Of a stretch of DNA of 7,138 bases, positions 1-7,138 are shown in pieces. The notes below the pieces were generated by a model, which made no database searches, was not told the DNA's origin, and saw only the letters and a list, made by a program, of their open reading frames with translations. The translations under genes and the position numbers were made by a program. The DNA is from a virus (taxonomy: Duplodnaviria; Heunggongvirae; Uroviricota; Caudoviricetes): the IMG/VR virus record IMGVR_UViG_2711768034_000004. One strand, written 5' to 3'. The first letter of the stretch is position 1. Each line of letters starts with the position of its first letter.

Positions 1-206
1 GGAACAACCTGTTCTCCGGCGGCGACAGCAGTAAGACTTCCTTCCTGGTATTGCTTACGCCAGAGAAATAACTGGCTGGCTGCTACACCATGTTGCCGGG
101 CAACGAGGGAGACCGTCATCCCCGGTTCAAAGCTCTGCTGAACAATTGCGATCTTTTCCTGTGTGGTACGCCGTCTGCGTTTCTCCGGCCCTAAGACATC
201 AATCAT
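1..206 (-). CDS. insC: IS2 transposase OrfA (InsC), N-terminal 68 codons; partial, 3' end outside window
   Basis: ATG at 204-206 on minus strand, preceded by GGAGAACAG. Translation [68 protein letters not shown] matches recalled IS2 OrfA. Absent from the ORF track because there is no stop in the window. Confidence 0.85.
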
Positions 207-297
207 CTGTTCTCCAATGACTAGTCTAAAAACTAGTATTAAGACTATCACTTATTTAAGTGATATTGGTTGTCTGGAGATTCAGGGGGCCAGTCTA
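1..297 (-). mobile_element. IS2 insertion sequence, left-end portion (terminal inverted repeat plus start of orfA); element continues past window start
   Basis: Reverse complement of 1-297 reads TAGACTGGCCCCCTGAATCTCCAGACAACCAATATCACTTAAATAAGTGATAGTCTTAATACTAGTTTTTAGACTAGTCATTGGAGAACAGATGATTGATG..., which I recognise as the IS2 left terminus. Terminal CCAGTCTA lies at 290-297; flanking sequence changes character at 298. Confidence 0.88.
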
Positions 298-3119
298 GTT
301 AACGACCTGACAGTTATATCCTGATTCCATCCGGAAACAACAACCTGACTCCACGCTGTCCAGTTTCCATTAACAACAAAGCGAACGTATATACGTTTTG
401 TGTCGCTGTTAATCAGCGTTTGCATGTTCGCATAATCTGAATCCCTAACCTTACGAGTCGACTCTACACGGAGCAAAAAGTTACCGGCTATGCCGTCAGG
501 CTTATTGGTAATATTTGCACCACCTGCAGAGGATGGACAAATATAGTATTTAACTGCCCCGGCATCTGACTTGATGATGGTCAGGTTGTTAAGATTAACC
601 GTCTGGCCGTCAATGTTTTCCGGCTCGATGGCTCCTGCTATCCCGGCACTGAACGTAGCAACGGCTGAAAACGCTGTCGTACCTTTGAAAGCCAGTTGAC
701 CACCAATCGTTAATCCCTTGTCGAGTTTCGCTTGCGTGATCAATTTGCTGTTTTGTTTCTGATCAGGACTCTCACCAAAAGCCAGATCCCCATTAGTATC
801 AATTCCAAGATACTTTGGGTTCATGTTGTCTAACTTAAACCCAATGGACACATTTTCAGAAGAACCAGAACGCGTTAAAACCAACGGCGTGTGCTGTACT
901 CCATAGATGCTGAGCGTAGTTGCCGATGAGTCAGTGTCGGTATTTGCAATCTCAATCGTTCTGCTTTTAATTTTATACGCTACTGTGAGATCACGGACTT
1001 CAACCCTCCCGTCGTGACGAACAACAAGATCCCCTCCTGATGTCCCCCCTGCTGTCTTTGCCCTGATGCGAACTTCGCCAAGCGAATCAGTGTTAGGACC
1101 AGCATAGATTATGCCGCGCTCTGTGTTATCGCCAGTATAAAACCGCAAAGCGGTGACTCCACTGTCTGCCCGCAGGAAGACTGACGGTGTACCTTTTTTG
1201 ATTGTCAAGTCACAGGTCATTGTATCGCCGGTTTTTTTTACCTGCGCATCGTTCGTTACGTTGCCAAGTCCAACATCCGATTTCGACGGCTTGTTTGCCG
1301 AGCCGTATAGCTCATTGATGCTAAAAGTCCCGTTGTTAAGCCGGGCATCGTTGCCGGCATAGATCTTAATCTTCGCGGTTGAGTAGTCGATATTGATCGC
1401 TGACCACGTATCGCCGCACCGCGAGAATATACCAGAACCGTGGCTATAAATGGTCGCCGTGCTTCCGGTCGGCTTATCACCGCGCCAGAAATGACCACCT
1501 TTGTCACGCAGAGCTTTTAAGATCTCTACATCGCTCATCTTGCCGTTTGTTGATATCCCGCTACCGCCAAGACCGAAAGCGCCTGTAAGCATAGCATTAG
1601 AAAGACCCAAATCTGCTTTAGTCGGCTTGTTTAACTGGTCGTAAATCCTTACAACGGGGCTTTCAACATATCCAGAAGGCGCGGCGGTTTGCTTAACAAA
1701 TCCGTCTGGAATGTATAATTCCGTGCGTGCCGTCTGCGCCAGTACCGCAACCTTTGCGCCGTTGATAAATGCACGCTGGAAGGCCCAAACCTCAATAAAG
1801 CCATCATCTTTAACCAGGCCGTAACGCATTTGCATGCTATTGATTAGCCCGGTTGGCCCTAAACGGCGTATACTCAGGTAACGAGATACATTATCAGCAG
1901 TAAGCGAAGAAGGCAGACCGCGCGCCGAGATCTCGATAAAGTCAATGTTTCCGTAAGGGGAGCCGTAGTCACCGCCGTTAGTAACCATTAGCGTTACATG
2001 GCAATTGTTGCTTCCGGGATCGGAAAGTTTCGCGATCTTTATGTAAAAAGACTCATTACCAGTAACAACGGGCCAATCGTATTGCGTCATCGGGCTGACG
2101 AGTCCCCCGACCTTGTCGAGATATTCTTTCGCCTTGTTCTCTGACGCTTTAGCGTTGGTTTCGCTGACCTTTGCTGCTGACTCACTATTTTTCGCGTTGG
2201 TTTCTGATTTTTTGGCTGCTGTCGCGGAATTTGCCGATGCAGTTTGTGAGTCTGCTGCCGCCTGTGCGCTGTTATCCGCATTCATCTCAGACGTTTTTGC
2301 GGCCTTCGCGGAATTTCCTGCCGCCGTTGCCGAGGAAGCTGCACTGCCGGCGCTCGAGGCTGCGCTCGTTTCTGATGATTTTGCCGCCACTTTTGAAGCC
2401 GACGCATCCCGGGCTGAGGTGGCAGCTTCTGACGCTTTCGTGGTCGCGGTGGATGCAGAAGTGGCCGCAGATTTTTGTGATGCTGCGGCATTCGTTTCTG
2501 ACGTTTTCGCTGCACCGGCACTGGTGGCTGCCGCGCTTTTTGAAGACTCTGCAGCGGCAGCACTTTTTGATGCTTCAGTAGCCTTTGTTGATGCCGTTCC
2601 TGCGCTGGAAGACGCTGACTGAGCCGACGACGCGGCCTGTCCGGCTGACGTGCTGGCTGCGCGTGCGGAGTCCGCAGCATCAGTCGCATGGGTTGCCGCC
2701 TCACGGGCTGATGTGCGGGCATCACTGGCTGACTTCTTCGCGGCTGCCGTGTTCTGTGCCACTGCGGACGCGTTACGCGCCACCTCTTCCACCATCAGTT
2801 CAAAGCGGCGCAGTGCCTCCGGACGGACATCATCCTCCGTCATGGCACCGAGAAAATCATTCAGCGTACCCGGTTGTGAGTCTTCATACACGGTGATGGT
2901 CCCGGCATGCGATGGCGGGAAGCCTTCCACCAACAGAATAACGCTGTACTGACCGTACTCAACGTCCATGCTGTAACGCCCGGCTTCATCCGGGTTTTCT
3001 GAGGCCACTGTGTTCACCACCACCGTGGTGCTGTTGCGCCTGGCCTTTAGCTGAATGGTGCAGTTTTGTATCGGCTTACCTGCGCCATCTTTCAGTACAC
3101 CTGAAATCCGTACTGCCAT
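282..3119 (-). CDS. stf: Lambdoid side tail fiber protein (lambda Stf homolog), 945 aa as read; 3' end interrupted by IS2, which supplies the last 4-5 codons and the stop
   Basis: N-terminal ~110 aa (MAVRISGVLKDGAGKPIQNCTIQLKARRNSTTVVVNTV...GRYSMDVEYGQYSVIL...FPPSHAGTITVYEDSQPGTLNDFL) is near-identical to recalled lambda Stf (orf-401) N-terminus. This is followed by an Ala/Ser/Thr-rich repeat region and a ~600 aa distal domain. ATG at 3117-3119 is preceded by a G-run RBS. The ORF reads across the IS2 boundary at 297/298: ...VRSLT then RLAP-stop from IS2. Confidence 0.85.
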   Translation of the reverse strand: MAVRISGVLKDGAGKPIQNCTIQLKARRNSTTVVVNTVASENPDEAGRYSMDVEYGQYSVILLVEGFPPSHAGTITVYEDSQPGTLNDFLGAMTEDDVRPEALRRFELMVEEVARNASAVAQNTAAAKKSASDARTSAREAATHATDAADSARAASTSAGQAASSAQSASSSAGTASTKATEASKSAAAAESSKSAAATSAGAAKTSETNAAASQKSAATSASTATTKASEAATSARDASASKVAAKSSETSAASSAGSAASSATAAGNSAKAAKTSEMNADNSAQAAADSQTASANSATAAKKSETNAKNSESAAKVSETNAKASENKAKEYLDKVGGLVSPMTQYDWPVVTGNESFYIKIAKLSDPGSNNCHVTLMVTNGGDYGSPYGNIDFIEISARGLPSSLTADNVSRYLSIRRLGPTGLINSMQMRYGLVKDDGFIEVWAFQRAFINGAKVAVLAQTARTELYIPDGFVKQTAAPSGYVESPVVRIYDQLNKPTKADLGLSNAMLTGAFGLGGSGISTNGKMSDVEILKALRDKGGHFWRGDKPTGSTATIYSHGSGIFSRCGDTWSAINIDYSTAKIKIYAGNDARLNNGTFSINELYGSANKPSKSDVGLGNVTNDAQVKKTGDTMTCDLTIKKGTPSVFLRADSGVTALRFYTGDNTERGIIYAGPNTDSLGEVRIRAKTAGGTSGGDLVVRHDGRVEVRDLTVAYKIKSRTIEIANTDTDSSATTLSIYGVQHTPLVLTRSGSSENVSIGFKLDNMNPKYLGIDTNGDLAFGESPDQKQNSKLITQAKLDKGLTIGGQLAFKGTTAFSAVATFSAGIAGAIEPENIDGQTVNLNNLTIIKSDAGAVKYYICPSSAGGANITNKPDGIAGNFLLRVESTRKVRDSDYANMQTLINSDTKRIYVRFVVNGNWTAWSQVVVSGWNQDITVRSLTRLAP
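2130..2780 (-). repeat. Low-complexity Ala/Ser/Thr/Lys-rich repetitive segment inside stf (about aa 114-330)
   Basis: Translated segment AAAKKSASDARTSAREAATHATDAADSARAASTSAGQAASSAQSASSSAGTASTKATEASKSAAAAESSKSAAATSAGAAKTSETNAAASQKSAATSAS... consists of degenerate short periodic motifs, as in lambda Stf / T4 gp37-type fiber shafts. It generates several long spurious ORFs on the opposite strand and in other frames. Confidence 0.7.
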
Positions 3120-3130
3120 ATTCCCCCCAC

Positions 3131-3155
3131 AAAAAAACCCGCCTGAACCGGCGGG
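3131..3155 (-). terminator. Candidate rho-independent terminator between lom remnant and stf
   Basis: Plus strand A7 (3131-3137) then CCCGCC (3138-3143), 6-nt loop, GGCGGG (3150-3155). On the minus-strand RNA this is a 6-bp GC stem followed by U7, 29 nt after the lom stop and immediately upstream of the stf RBS. Confidence 0.5.
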
Positions 3156-3183
3156 CTGTCATAACACTGTGTTACCTGGCTAA

Positions 3184-3384
3184 TCAGAATTTATAACCGA
3201 CACCCACGATGAAACCGTCAGTGCGCCAGTCACCACTGCCGGAACCTTCATAAGCAATATCAATGGCCACGGATTCGGTCGGGTTAAACTGCACGCCAGC
3301 CCCCCACGCCAGAGACGTGTTGCTGTGGCGACCGTCATCACTTCCGGTCAGCACATCGTGCGTTTTCCCCTTGTTGTCAGTTAG
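3184..3384 (-). pseudogene. lom: lom (Ail/Lom-family outer membrane protein) C-terminal fragment, about 65 codons, no start codon
   Basis: Minus-strand translation ends ...SLAWGAGVQFNPTESVAIDIAYEGSGSGDWRTDGFIVGVGYKF-stop (stop at 3184-3186), matching recalled lambda Lom C-terminus ...SVAWSAGIQINPAASVVVDIAYEGSGSGDWRTDGFIVGVGYKF. The frame is closed upstream by a stop at 3418-3420 with no ATG, so the N-terminal two thirds of lom are missing. Confidence 0.75.
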
Positions 3385-3829
3385 ACGGTCATGGCATCCA
3401 TGGCTGGCTGAAAATATTCACCGCAGTGCGGACATGGCCAGTACCAGCGGCGGCGGTCACCACGATTGTAAAGGGAAAGAATACCAGTCGTCGGTGGCGC
3501 TTCATGAGGCGACTTACGTCGCCATTTGCTGTCGCAGATGTCACGTCCCGGCGAGCTCTCCACCAGAGTCATCCCGGCGGACATAAATGTGGTGGTACGT
3601 TTTGAGGCCTGGGAGAAACCATCACCCTCGCTGTCGATATTCTCCGGAAAACGGTCGTAATCGGTTAAGGCGACAAACCGGTAACGGGGTTCCCCCTGAC
3701 AGTCGCAGCCACAGGAGTGTTGGCCGCGAGGAGCCGTTTTTTTACTGTGTCCCGGTGAAGCCCAAAGGCCTCGGCGATTTTAAAAACACTCCAGTAATAA
3801 GCATCACCGATCCCGCTCACATTTGACAT
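3381..3829 (-). pseudogene. Terminase / DNA-packaging gene remnant: Nu1-like (Noh) N-terminal HTH segment, frame-disrupted, continuing into a short gpA-like segment; truncated
   Basis: ATG at 3827-3829 with GGAG 6 nt upstream gives MSNVSGIGDAYYWSVFKIAEAFGLHRDTVKKRLLAANTPVAATVRGNPV..., stop at 3665-3667. The segment IAEAFGLHRDTVKKRL...RG resembles lambda Nu1 LADIFGASIRTIQNWQ...LRGGG. A second frame, open 3779 to 3381, continues sensibly: YRFVALTDYDRFPENIDSEGDGFSQASKRTTTFMSAGMTLVESSPGRDICDSKWRRKSPHEAPPTTGILSLYNRGDRRRWYWPCPHCGEYFQPAMDAMTV. Its CPHCGE and ESSPGRD...SKW..KS motifs resemble the lambda gpA region recalled as EGSPTFLGDKRIEGSVWPKS...ACPHCGEE. The two frames meet near 3680-3695, a G/C-run region. 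Confidence 0.5.
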
Positions 3830-3989
3830 AAGCAACTCCATCTGGCAGGTGAAAATCAGGTTTATTTATATATTTCAATTAATTGCAAACTAGTCTAATG
3901 ACAGGGAGAAAAAAATATTGTACAGCTGAAAAGAGAAATAACTTTTAATTATCAATAAATTACCAAACATGCTGCCGCCGCCATGGAAA

Positions 3990-4060
3990 TGCAAAAACTA
4001 GCCTTTTTCCGCGACGCTCCCGCCCCGTGGCAGGGACCCCCACTGGGAGGACCCGACAGC
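3990..4060 (-). other. Candidate cos (cohesive end, cosN-like) site of the ancestral phage
   Basis: Isolated GC-rich block in an AT-rich region. Minus-strand reading GGGGCGGGAGCGTCGCGG (plus 4009-4026) resembles lambda cosN GGGCGGCGACCTCGCGGG, and lies about 200 nt upstream of the Nu1-like start codon (lambda: about 190 nt). An AT-rich tract suitable for cosB/IHF lies between it and the gene. Confidence 0.4.
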
Positions 4061-4391
4061 CTGACAACCGTGACGAGCATCTGAAACAGAGCTTTACATA
4101 ATGGCATGGGGATAATTCAGAAGGACATCACAGCATGCCCACACAAATTAGTGTGAGTGTCCTGTTTCTTACTACGCGCAGGACTGACGAGCATGAGGGG
4201 AAAATACGAGAACCGAAATGCCTTATCTTCAGAAATGCAGCCGGCATCCGAACTGGACGATATTGTAAATTCACCTAAATACGAGGCATTGCTGTAGTTG
4301 AATTGCATTGCTGTATTAGCCTGACAGTGACAGAATACGATATTGACTCTGTCACTTGTGAAATGGTCAGAATGGTTAGCAGTTATGGTGA

Positions 4392-4598
4392 TCAGTCAAC
4401 CACCAGGGAATAATCCTTCGTATTCTTATCGTGCTTTACTAACGCGGCCTCAATTGCCCTGAATGCTTCCAGAGACACTTGATGTTCTATACATGCAATT
4501 ACAACATCCGGGTAACCCATCGAAATGGTGCTATTAAGCATAGTTTTTACACGAACCTGCTCCTGGGAGGGGGCATCAGTGTATTGATCTTTATGCAT
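4392..4598 (-). CDS. Hypothetical small prophage protein (68 aa), possibly ynfO/ydfO-region equivalent; start uncertain
   Basis: [71 protein letters not shown] has balanced, helix-like composition and the same orientation as neighbouring moron genes. No family recognised from memory. Confidence 0.4.
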
Positions 4599-4809
4599 TT
4601 TGTCGCTCCATGCGTTTGCTCTTCACTTACGGCTAAAAATATAACGTCAAATCACTCAGCATGAAAGAGTTAAAGATTCAGCGCGTTTCCCTTACATAAT
4701 CTGTCGTTTGTATTCTCTTCAGGCATACCGGAAAGACTAGGTATTGTCACACAACCAATACCATCGACAATCGAGATTTATACCTATTCGGTAATGTTTA
4801 AATATAACA

Positions 4810-4832
4810 AAACCCCGTAAAAACGAGGTTTA
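4810..4832 (-). terminator. Weak candidate terminator downstream of gnsB
   Basis: Imperfect hairpin AAACCTCG/CGGGGTTT (one G-U pair on the minus-strand RNA) with a 6-nt loop, followed by a moderately U-rich tail; about 60 nt past the gnsB stop. Confidence 0.3.
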
Positions 4833-4891
4833 TGGGTAATTTGTATTGTTGAATAGCATCTGATGAGAAATTGATGCTAATACTAAACAGA

Positions 4892-5065
4892 CTAGATTAA
4901 ATCAATCTTGATATCATAGCTTTCAAGACCAGTCATTTTTTCCCGTGCAGTAAACTGGATACTGGTAACTTCTTTCCCGGTCTTTTTCTTAAGCTCAATG
5001 ATTTTTTTTGTTATATATTCAGAAATATCTGCTTCTGTTTTTGTTTTTAACTCTTCAATGTTCAT
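4892..5065 (-). CDS. gnsB: GnsA/GnsB-family protein (57 aa)
   Basis: MNIEELKTKTEADISEYITKKIIELKKKTGKEVTSIQFTAREKMTGLESYDIKIDLI matches the recalled GnsA/GnsB family (FTAREKMTGLESYD motif). RBS AAGAGGAA sits 6 nt upstream of the ATG at 5063-5065. The ORF-track version (88 aa, 4892..5158) uses an upstream in-frame start that I do not favour. Confidence 0.85.
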   Translation of the reverse strand: MNIEELKTKTEADISEYITKKIIELKKKTGKEVTSIQFTAREKMTGLESYDIKIDLI

Positions 5066-5237
5066 CATTTCCTCTTTTAGTCTGTTATGACTTTCCTGGT
5101 ACACAGTAGTGTCAATTATATGGAGCAAACGTATAAAAGATAAGATGAAACATCGCAATAATCAACATACGACGGTCTAAATTTCACACAAACAGATAAA
5201 GATGATTATCATTTATTATCAATGCATTAGAATCAAA

Positions 5238-5429
5238 TCAATTCAAGAGTCTCATTGCTGCTTCCAGAATTTCTTCTGAAGTTACATGTCGATCCGCTGC
5301 TACATAAATGACTTTATGATCTCCGGTCAGAGATGGAAACCCTGCAGCCATTACAGTGAGGTGTGTTGTTTCGCCATTTGGATATTCACGCATGATGGTG
5401 TTAACTCCGGTCATCACTGGCACTACCAT
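5238..5429 (-). CDS. Hypothetical small protein (up to 63 aa), ynfN-like by position in a Qin-type layout; start codon uncertain (in-frame ATGs at codons 1, 6 and 13)
   Basis: ORF MVVPVMTGVNTIMREYPNGETTHLTVMAAGFPSLTGDHKVIYVAADRHVTSEEILEAAMRLLN lies between gnsB and cspI on the same strand. GGAG is found 11 nt upstream of the third ATG only. Confidence 0.45.
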   Translation of the reverse strand: MVVPVMTGVNTIMREYPNGETTHLTVMAAGFPSLTGDHKVIYVAADRHVTSEEILEAAMRLLN

Positions 5430-5511
5430 TGCTGGTTCAGAGTTAAAAAAACTATTATTTTTTTCATAATGTTACCGTAATATGTGAGTATCCATCGACT
5501 AGACACTAAGC

Positions 5512-5531
5512 AAAAAAGCTCCCGAAGGAGC
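5512..5531 (-). terminator. Rho-independent terminator (minus strand) with UUCG tetraloop
   Basis: Plus strand A6 (5512-5517), GCTCC (5518-5522), CGAA, GGAGC (5527-5531). On the minus-strand RNA: GCUCC-UUCG-GGAGC followed by U6. It begins 9 nt after the stop of the 5540-5794 ORF. Confidence 0.6.
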
Positions 5532-5539
5532 CTTCATTT

Positions 5540-5755
5540 TCACTTTCTTAAATCTAACGATAGACGGCTAACATTTAAGTATTGTGAAATATTATCAAAT
5601 GTAATCATCATTGATTTACAAAAGATACATTTTGCCCCGAAAGGATTCCTGTCAGAAACATCAAAAGATGATGTTCTATACTGAGAACCATGGCAACACG
5701 GGCATCTAAAGTGAATATGGTTTGTAATATTTTCTACCTCAAAGTGCCACAACAT
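5540..5755 (-). CDS. Candidate Ogr/Delta-like zinc-finger protein (71 aa from ATG at 5755; 84 aa if TTG at 5794 is used), overlapping the 3' end of cspI
   Basis: Translation ...[46 protein letters not shown]... has a C-x2-C-x21-C-x2-C arrangement with a conserved RTS after the first Cys pair, resembling recalled P2 Ogr (CPLCQHAAHARTSRYITDTTKERYHQCQNVNCSATFITYESVQRY). A strong terminator follows immediately. Caveats: AT-rich region, start overlaps cspI by at least 17 nt, no clear RBS. Confidence 0.4.
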
Positions 5756-5951
5756 GAACAGCCGCGGGGCCTTTAGGTCCGTTCTCAATACCAAATTCGA
5801 CTTCCTGATTCTCAGTTAACGTTTTGAAATCGTTGCTCTGAATAGCTGAGAAATGGACAAACACATCTTTGCTACCATCTTTCGGCGTGATGAAACCAAA
5901 ACCTTTTTCAGGGTTAAACCATTTCACTAAACCAGTCATTGTGTTAGACAT
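5739..5951 (-). CDS. cspI: CspA-family cold-shock protein (70 aa), CspI-like
   Basis: [70 protein letters not shown] carries the cold-shock domain RNP motifs (KGFGFI, VFVHF) and is nearly identical to recalled CspI. The ORF track begins one Met earlier (5954). Confidence 0.9.
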
Positions 5952-6200
5952 CATTATTACCTTTTGAAGAAGTTAGCCCTTGGGCAGAATGATCCGAAAA
6001 AAATATCAGAGAGAAAAACCAAAAAGGAAATCTCAAGAGGTACAAATAATAAAATTATAACAATGACTGCTTCAGATAATTTTGTAACAAACCAGAACAC
6101 CATTAACGCATGATTAACCAACCATAGCAAGGATTACTTTTGTAAAGAAAAACACACGAATGAAACAATAGCTTTATTTATTAATAAAACGTGTCATTCT
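5952..6200 (-). promoter_or_regulatory. Long AT-rich 5' leader and promoter region of cspI
   Basis: About 250 nt of AT-rich non-coding sequence upstream of cspI, with ...CTTCAAAAGGTAATA-ATG similar to the cspA leader end (AAAGGTAATACACT-ATG). A possible cold-box-like AATGACACG lies near 6190-6200 on the minus strand. Boundaries are approximate. Confidence 0.35.
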
Positions 6201-6313
6201 GTCTAATGACCTTTTATCTTACCCTTAAGATTTCAAGGATTTTGACTCATGGAAGAGTCCTTTTTATTTAAATTTCACATTCAGCGCTAAAAATAATCCG
6301 ATTTAATATTAAT

Positions 6314-7138
<825 letters not shown>

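Follow-up and report, generated by a model that had tools for sequence, protein, structure and literature searches.

The interval 3184–3841 of the window, as we call the whole 7,138-nucleotide stretch of DNA analyzed here (IMG/VR record IMGVR_UViG_2711768034_000004), is best explained as a composite deletion scar, most likely formed in three steps, in a Qin-type lambdoid cryptic prophage of Escherichia coli. We assign this reading a probability of about 90%. All genes in the window lie on the minus strand, and within 3184–3841 that strand carries the stumps of three genes, each in its own reading frame and with stop codons between them (ORF list and frame check). The stumps are, in order, the N-terminal 49 codons of a small terminase subunit gene (TerS, 3683–3829), codons 165–264 of a gpA-type large terminase subunit gene (TerL, 3382–3684), and the last 65 codons of lom (3184–3383). 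A first-pass annotation of this DNA had described three contiguous remnants with frame changes at joints near 3680–3695 and 3381–3420. All three are present on the minus strand in three different frames, and the breakpoints, 3683/3684 and 3382/3383, fall within these ranges. The stump region is bounded by the stf ORF (282–3119) and by intergenic DNA from 3842 onward. The features are as follows.

1–297: end of an IS2-type (IS3 family) element; strains lacking the IS align from 298
298–3119, minus strand: side tail fiber gene stf (Pfam phage_tail_N, 1.4e-72)
3136–3157, minus strand: intrinsic-terminator-like hairpin with a T-run, just 3' of the lom stop codon (pattern scan)
3184–3383, minus strand: lom pseudogene remnant (blastn to cdtI and H2, blastx, Pfam Ail_Lom, phrog_108)
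3382–3385: junction B, gpA nt 1526 to lom nt 19111 (three-way alignment with the lom and gpA sides of H2)
3382–3684, minus strand: internal fragment of a gpA-type large terminase gene (blastn, blastx, Pfam GpA_ATPase, phrog_15)
3665–3841, minus strand: truncated TerS ORF of the DUF1441/phrog_141 type (blastx, phrog_141 at 2.5e-9, Pfam DUF1441 at 19.3 bits)
3683–3684: junction A, TerS nt 343 to gpA nt 1224 (alignments with ZY22049, cdtI, and Tritos)
3842–4025, minus strand: retained cos region, with the cosN cohesive end GGGCGGGAGCGT at 4025–4014

Identification of the Stumps and of the Missing DNA

The stumps were identified by blastx-type comparison together with Pfam and PHROG profile scans, and their matches to terminase and Lom proteins are far beyond chance. 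Lambda is too distant to serve as a breakpoint reference. The intact phages cdtI (NC_009514) and Tritos (OV696610) were used in its place, and this comparison with intact relatives, already proposed in the first-pass annotation, mapped both the breakpoints and the missing DNA. By blastn, window 3683–4025 corresponds to cdtI nt 343–1, window 3382–3684 to cdtI nt 1526–1224, and window 2770–3383 to cdtI nt 19724–19111. The DNA absent across both joints amounts to 18,464 bp in cdtI coordinates (880 + 17,584). Lost are the final 126 TerS codons, TerL codons 1–164 and 265–699, the first 133 codons of lom, and 16 whole genes, from the head–tail adaptor through J on the cdtI gene map. The earlier statement that the whole head–tail module is missing therefore holds for these 16 genes, but stf survives downstream and is the only tail gene remaining.

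The gpA fragment corresponds to cdtI nt 1224–1526, codons 165–264 of 699, and covers the rear part of the ATPase domain. Its DNA is 98.7–99% identical to cdtI, Tritos, and strain ZY22049 (blastn), and blastx aligns 3683–3387 with residues 165–263 of the 699-residue cdtI/Tritos TerL at 99% identity (E about 1e-68). Against Pfam GpA_ATPase (PF05876) the fragment scores 50.1 bits, with a cut-off of 25.6, over profile positions 163–209 of 247 only; against phrog_15 it reaches 4.6e-45. These matches bear out the earlier description of a gpA-like stretch. A direct blastx comparison with lambda gpA gives an E value of only 0.003. The fragment is incomplete: 164 codons are missing at the N-terminal end and 435 at the C-terminal end, and the nuclease domain is among the latter losses.

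The lom remnant corresponds to cdtI nt 19111–19310 and consists of 65 complete codons, matching the approximately 65 first estimated, followed by a stop codon at 3184–3186. Positions 3383–3187 encode residues 134–199 of cdtI Lom (blastx), and the remnant is 64% identical to residues 146–206 of lambda Lom. Among the three lambda proteins that had been named as blastx targets, Lom thus gives a clear match, whereas gpA is reached only weakly and Nu1 not at all. The remnant scores 101.5 bits against Pfam Ail_Lom (PF06316; cut-off 23, E 6.6e-29) over profile positions 145–199 of 199 and 5.8e-33 against phrog_108 Lom. DNA identity ends at 3383, the N-terminal 133 codons with the signal peptide are gone, and the only codon that could serve as a start is a GTG within the gene, at 3354. 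This piece is a pseudogene remnant and not a complete Ail/Lom protein of ~199 aa. The first-pass annotation had left room for a complete small OMP with an overlooked start; the loss of the signal peptide and of the N-terminal two thirds, with GTG 3354 as the only candidate start, speaks against it. It had also considered that 3381–3829 might encode a single intact non-terminase protein, and that interval contains three stop codons. Plus-strand ORFs of 59–107 aa within the scar region have no Pfam match and were dropped as chance antisense ORFs.

The Small Terminase Stump and Its Relationship to Nu1

The TerS stump starts at ATG 3829 or 3841 and is genuine coding sequence down to 3683. It retains 49 authentic codons out of 175, including a helix-turn-helix-like segment; 3' of codon 49, five out-of-frame codons lead to a stop at 3665–3667. 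By blastx it aligns with the N-terminus of cdtI gp01/Tritos TerS at 96% identity (E 7e-33). The fragment alone scores 19.3 bits against DUF1441, which is under the Pfam cut-off of 35.1, and 2.5e-9 against phrog_141, whereas the full-length relative, cdtI gp01/Tritos TerS, scores 151.8 bits against DUF1441. Because the stump is 96% identical to DUF1441 proteins with this high score, the alignment indicates that it is a truncated DUF1441/phrog_141 member by descent.

The relationship of this protein to lambda Nu1, to which the stump had first been likened, is a distant one. Lambda Nu1 yields no blastx match to the stump and a BLASTP E value of 4.6. Full-length Tritos TerS does not match Phage_Nu1 (PF07471) even at E values up to 10 and hits DUF1441 alone, while lambda Nu1 and K-12 NohA score 333–336 bits on the Phage_Nu1 profile. 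Reciprocal profile cross-matches are found: the DUF1441 protein matches phrog_57, the PHROG of Nu1, at 1e-9, and lambda Nu1 matches phrog_141 at 5.6e-8, with cross-alignments that cover most of the protein length. These data indicate that the DUF1441 small subunit is a remote relative of Nu1 that lies outside the Phage_Nu1 family as defined by Pfam. The term Nu1-like is consequently apt for a small terminase with a profile-level kinship to Nu1, but not as a family assignment. In the gene maps of cdtI and Tritos, the DUF1441 gene is flanked directly by cos on one side and the large terminase gene on the other. Since it sits between a lambda-like cosN and a gpA homologue, DUF1441 TerS can be expected, by analogy, to work like Nu1. 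When solved structures were searched with the full-length DUF1441 protein, nothing meaningful came up (best E 0.49). The single-sequence AlphaFold model of the 58-aa stump is poor (pLDDT 64.8), and Foldseek found no match to it in the PDB below E 3.5.

Junctions and Probable Mechanism of Deletion

Junction A marks the loss of 880 bp, cdtI nt 344–1223, a length not divisible by 3. The two parental sequences share 2 bp (AA) at the joint, with GTAA flanking in both. Junction B (3382/3383) marks the loss of cdtI nt 1527–19110, or 17,584 bp. Here the microhomology is TA (3382–3383), within an imperfect 9-bp repeat that reads GTTACGCGG in lom and GGTAGCCGG in gpA and agrees at 6 of the 9 positions. 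The junction B 31-mer is CCTTGTTGTCAGTTAGACGGTCATGGCATCC. The gpA frame is ended by a TAA codon (3381–3383) that junction B itself creates. A C-to-A change at 3385, two bases from junction B, is the sole substitution relative to strain H2 in window 1–5386, and it probably arose in the same event as the junction B deletion.

The search for microhomology that the first-pass annotation had suggested thus found 2 bp at each joint of the window, and a third joint, between gpA and J in H2, has 2 bp as well (TC). Alignments and a sequence scan revealed no IS end, att site, or long repeat at the joints. Joints with such short microhomology are typical of RecA-independent illegitimate recombination or replication slippage. 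Because each joint shows a 2-bp microhomology in a setting free of long repeats, IS ends, and att sites, the sequences point to illegitimate, short-homology recombination.

Distribution of the Junctions and Proposed Order of Events

The distribution of the junctions was examined in 5,426 complete E. coli genomes. Junction A occurs in 14 of them, in identical form, and the gpA|J junction also occurs in 14; all strains listed for junction A carry gpA|J too. Junction B is found in none of the 5,426, and its exact pattern, with or without the odd base at 3385, is absent from species-representative genomes and JGI metagenomes. Junction B is therefore seen in the window alone and is without independent confirmation.

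Strain H2 is informative with respect to what was removed last. Aligned to H2, the window is the same sequence apart from a gap of 2,944 bp. Window 1–3383 shows no differences from H2 in 3,383 bp, and window 3382–5386 shows one junction-adjacent substitution and one single-base indel in 2,005 bp. Within the gap, H2 and strain 127 carry 37 bp of additional gpA sequence and a J remnant of 2,445 bp; the gap also takes in the opening 400 bp of their lom, which is intact in both strains. H2 combines junction A with a joint of gpA nt 1563 to J nt 16178. The Qin-type prophages of H2 and 127 therefore resemble the window in having identical or nearly identical flanks and exactly the same junction A, but they still hold the 2,944 bp that the window lacks, and their IS3 lies at another place.

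These comparisons allow us to propose an order of events. The ancestor would have carried an intact module as in Tritos and cdtI, consisting of cos, TerS of the DUF1441 type, a gpA-type TerL, the genes from portal to J, lom, and stf. An 880-bp deletion would then have joined TerS codon 49 to gpA codon 165. A second deletion, of ~14.6 kb, would have brought gpA nt 1563 up against the C-terminal portion of J, producing the state kept in H2 and 127. Finally, a 2,944-bp deletion would have taken the gpA|J joint together with what remained of J and the 5' two thirds of lom, bringing gpA nt 1526 next to lom nt 19111. All three deletions would be RecA-independent, illegitimate, short-homology events. 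These alignments make three steps the most likely route to the scar, with the 2,944-bp deletion as the last, so that the earlier claim of at least one large deletion becomes two joints (880 and 17,584 bp) and most likely three events. Three events are favored because the H2 intermediate exists and one extra 2.9-kb deletion is the shorter path; the proposed order accordingly rests on parsimony.

Junction B could instead have formed in one step, by a 17.6-kb deletion (cdtI nt 1527–19110) after junction A, with H2 and 127 as a sister lineage. Junction B alone retains no record of what DNA went, and the independent scars in ZY22049, AST19, EH01-18-02, and K-12 imply that large independent deletions are common in this prophage family. 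However, the intermediate that this route requires, with junction A and an otherwise intact module, was seen in none of the complete genomes, whereas A and gpA|J are equally frequent there and accompany each other in the strains listed for A. With the window identical to H2 over 3,383 bp on the left, and nearly so on the right, a further 2.9-kb deletion starting from the state found in H2 is the shorter route. We consider the one-step route unlikely.

The IS copies at both window ends suggest that the window is a short-read contig, which raises the question of whether junction B is an assembly artefact, in which two loci were wrongly joined. Ends in IS elements, lom-like sequence at a median of 2 places per genome, and the failure of junction B to appear in any other genome or metagenome searched would all be compatible with such an error. 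Mis-joins by graph assemblers occur at long shared repeats. At junction B, in contrast, the parental sequences have no more than 2 bp in common, embedded in a stretch that matches at 6 of 9 positions, and a substitution accompanies the join. Moreover, both flanks come from one prophage, in the order and orientation of H2, as a simple internal deletion predicts. An artefact is thus very unlikely. The same flanks bear on a joint produced by recombination between two lambdoid prophages in one chromosome, for example between a Qin gpA stump and a foreign lom. E. coli genomes do hold several lom–stf copies, and exchange between prophages is well documented (PMC3945230). The lom–stf flank of the window, however, is 100% identical to the lom–stf of H2's own Qin, at the expected distance and orientation, and the joint has no homology stretch that would support homologous exchange. 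We regard such an origin as scarcely credible, and stepwise deletion within a single Qin-type prophage remains the preferred reading.

Other strains have joints that differ from those of the window. The joint in ZY22049 connects gpA nt 1526 to lom nt 19051 and occurs in one genome (locus L001, 4329/4330). AST19 has two joints, TerS nt 232 to gpA nt 1223 (locus L006, 4918–4925) and gpA nt 1832 to lom nt 19058, and in EH01-18-02 gpA nt 1658 is joined to a point just upstream of stf. The gpA-side breakpoints at nt 1223/1224 and nt 1526 therefore recur between strains with different partners. This recurrence could stem from hot spots at short repeats, from slippage nested on a joint that was already there, or from recombination among variants. 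The re-use of gpA nt 1526 in ZY22049 may mean that hot spots or recombination between Qin variants complicate the history. ZY22049 was also considered as the parent of the window on account of this common breakpoint, and it was rejected: its lom–stf flank diverges by 6%, and junction A is missing from it.

Relationship to Qin and to Intact Phages

The element is assigned to the Qin-type cryptic prophages because of its neighboring genes gnsB, ynfN, ynfQ, cspI, and rzpQ, which are annotated in this order in near-identical loci of complete E. coli genomes; rrrQ is also annotated beside the remnants in such loci. Background on cryptic prophages is available (PMC6832061, PMC3945230). K-12 Qin has the same five genes in the same order and is 93.8% identical over window 4894–6842. 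It has also undergone a comparable loss in its nohA–stfQ region, where the small-terminase gene nohA adjoins a truncated stfQ and the intervening head and tail genes are gone. The two elements differ in the module affected and in the breakpoints. K-12 Qin encodes a lambda-type Nu1 homologue, NohA (Phage_Nu1, 336 bits), whereas the window has the DUF1441/gpA module, and no DNA similarity was found between K-12 Qin and window 3184–4756. At the K-12 scar, stumps of gpA and lom are both absent and the joint falls within stf. K-12 Qin adjoins ydfJ, while the window terminates at each end in an IS copy and includes no chromosomal flank.

Annotations of close relatives agree with a decayed element. 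In sister strains, RefSeq lists the pieces of the DUF1441 family, the phage terminase large subunit family, and the Ail/Lom family as partial pseudogenes. In H2 and 127, DUF1441, terminase, J, and stf are already annotated in this way, and lom is intact there. The decay seen here is of an ordinary, known kind, already annotated as such in close relatives; junction B is strain-specific and not new in kind.

Among complete phages, Tritos and cdtI are recovered at 99.4–99.8% identity when the terminase DNA of ZY22049 is used as the query. Tritos and cdtI are 98.5–99% identical to the window across cos and the two terminase stumps, and the lysis, cspI, and gnsB genome end of Tritos is also common to the window. 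They are complete phages of 46–47 kb, whereas the window is short of 18,464 bp in cdtI coordinates. Tritos itself lacks lom, and cdtI carries a toxin cargo that is absent from the window. Tritos is viable, as documented by plaques and electron microscopy (PMC9928086). With lambda, the module shares the Nu1–A...lom gene order and the cos architecture. TerL is a homologue of lambda gpA (24% identity over 627 aa, E 3e-21), and Lom is 44% identical over its full length. In contrast, the small subunit has no pairwise similarity to Nu1 and is linked to it by reciprocal profile matches only. The gene distances of lambda apply to the window by analogy only.

Consequences of the Deletions

None of the three stumps is likely to be functional. 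The TerS stump has lost 126 of 175 codons, which by analogy with Nu1 would include the oligomerization and gpA-binding parts. The gpA stump, without its N-terminal 164 codons and its nuclease domain, and the Lom stump, without its signal peptide and most of its barrel, are predicted to be inactive as well. With these losses, the element should therefore be incapable of packaging DNA or building virions. The earlier view of a cryptic prophage that cannot make virions is supported by the condition of the stumps together with the 16 missing genes and the Qin context. The survivors of the late region are cos, the truncated stf, and the lysis and cold-shock genes.

The retained cos region is well preserved. 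Over its first 60 nt it matches the left end of Tritos, whose record is linear, at 60 of 60 positions; the window crosses the ends of that record at 4025/4026. The cosN sequence GGGCGGGAGCGT is similar to that of lambda, GGGCGGCGACCT. The segment between cosN and the TerS start (3842–4013) is intact and occupies the place of lambda cosB; a cosB role is suggested by this position. The defective prophage thus still has a potential packaging start site.

One could argue that the remnant is kept because it is useful, with the TerS peptide of 54–58 aa and cos acting as a selected module, for example as a decoy against packaging of the Tritos/cdtI type. The ORF does retain its start and the helix-turn-helix-like segment, cos is identical to Tritos at 60 of 60 positions, and 14 other genomes carry this truncated ORF as well. 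These 14 genomes, however, are near-identical here, so that recent common descent explains the retention. AST19 lacks a further 106 bp of the TerS ORF, a promoter scan of 3000–4400 found no sigma-70-like sites, and the structure model is poor. We hold selection of such a module to be extremely improbable. That cos plus the 49-codon stump has been selected as a decoy or entry point for incoming terminases, by way of packaging interference or cos recombination, is a highly speculative proposal; so, separately, is the suggestion that the re-used gpA breakpoints are true hot spots.

Recombination of defective prophages with related infecting phages has been shown for others (PMC3945230), and the surviving cos and terminase stumps could still recombine with such phages. 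For annotation, the three ORF fragments in 3184–3841 are pseudogene remnants, and the element is a defective Qin-type prophage from which no particles are expected. The breakpoints can serve as strain markers, junction A being present in 14 of 5,426 genomes and junction B being private. The scar offers a small worked example of stepwise prophage decay through microhomology deletions.

Neighboring Features and Window Ends

At the left end of the window, the IS2-type element cuts off the C-terminus of stf and supplies the stop codon of a 945-aa ORF, so that stf looks intact but is truncated. The stf of H2, which lies beside IS3-family transposase genes, is annotated as "missing C-terminus". At the other end, window 6842–7138 is the left end of IS3 and is 100% identical to the copy within ynfN in H2 and to the copy near 4812 in AST19. 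This IS3 end lies just past the rzpQ start, where rrrQ would come next.

Several further observations concern the region between cos and the right end. The DUF1398 gene, which is ybcV in Tritos and ydfO in K-12 and lies between gnsB and a ybcW-like gene, is absent from the window. At the corresponding site, window 4676–4759 holds ~84 bp of unmatched sequence, and the same state is found in H2, 127, and ZY22049. An Rfam cspA thermoregulator match on the minus strand at 5693–6108 (108.7 bits, gathering score 78) spans the 5' leader and start of cspI. A 98-aa ORF at 6364–6660 on the minus strand lies in another frame inside rzpQ and has a lipobox-like LTSC motif; its position matches that of the K-12 o-spanin gene rzoQ.
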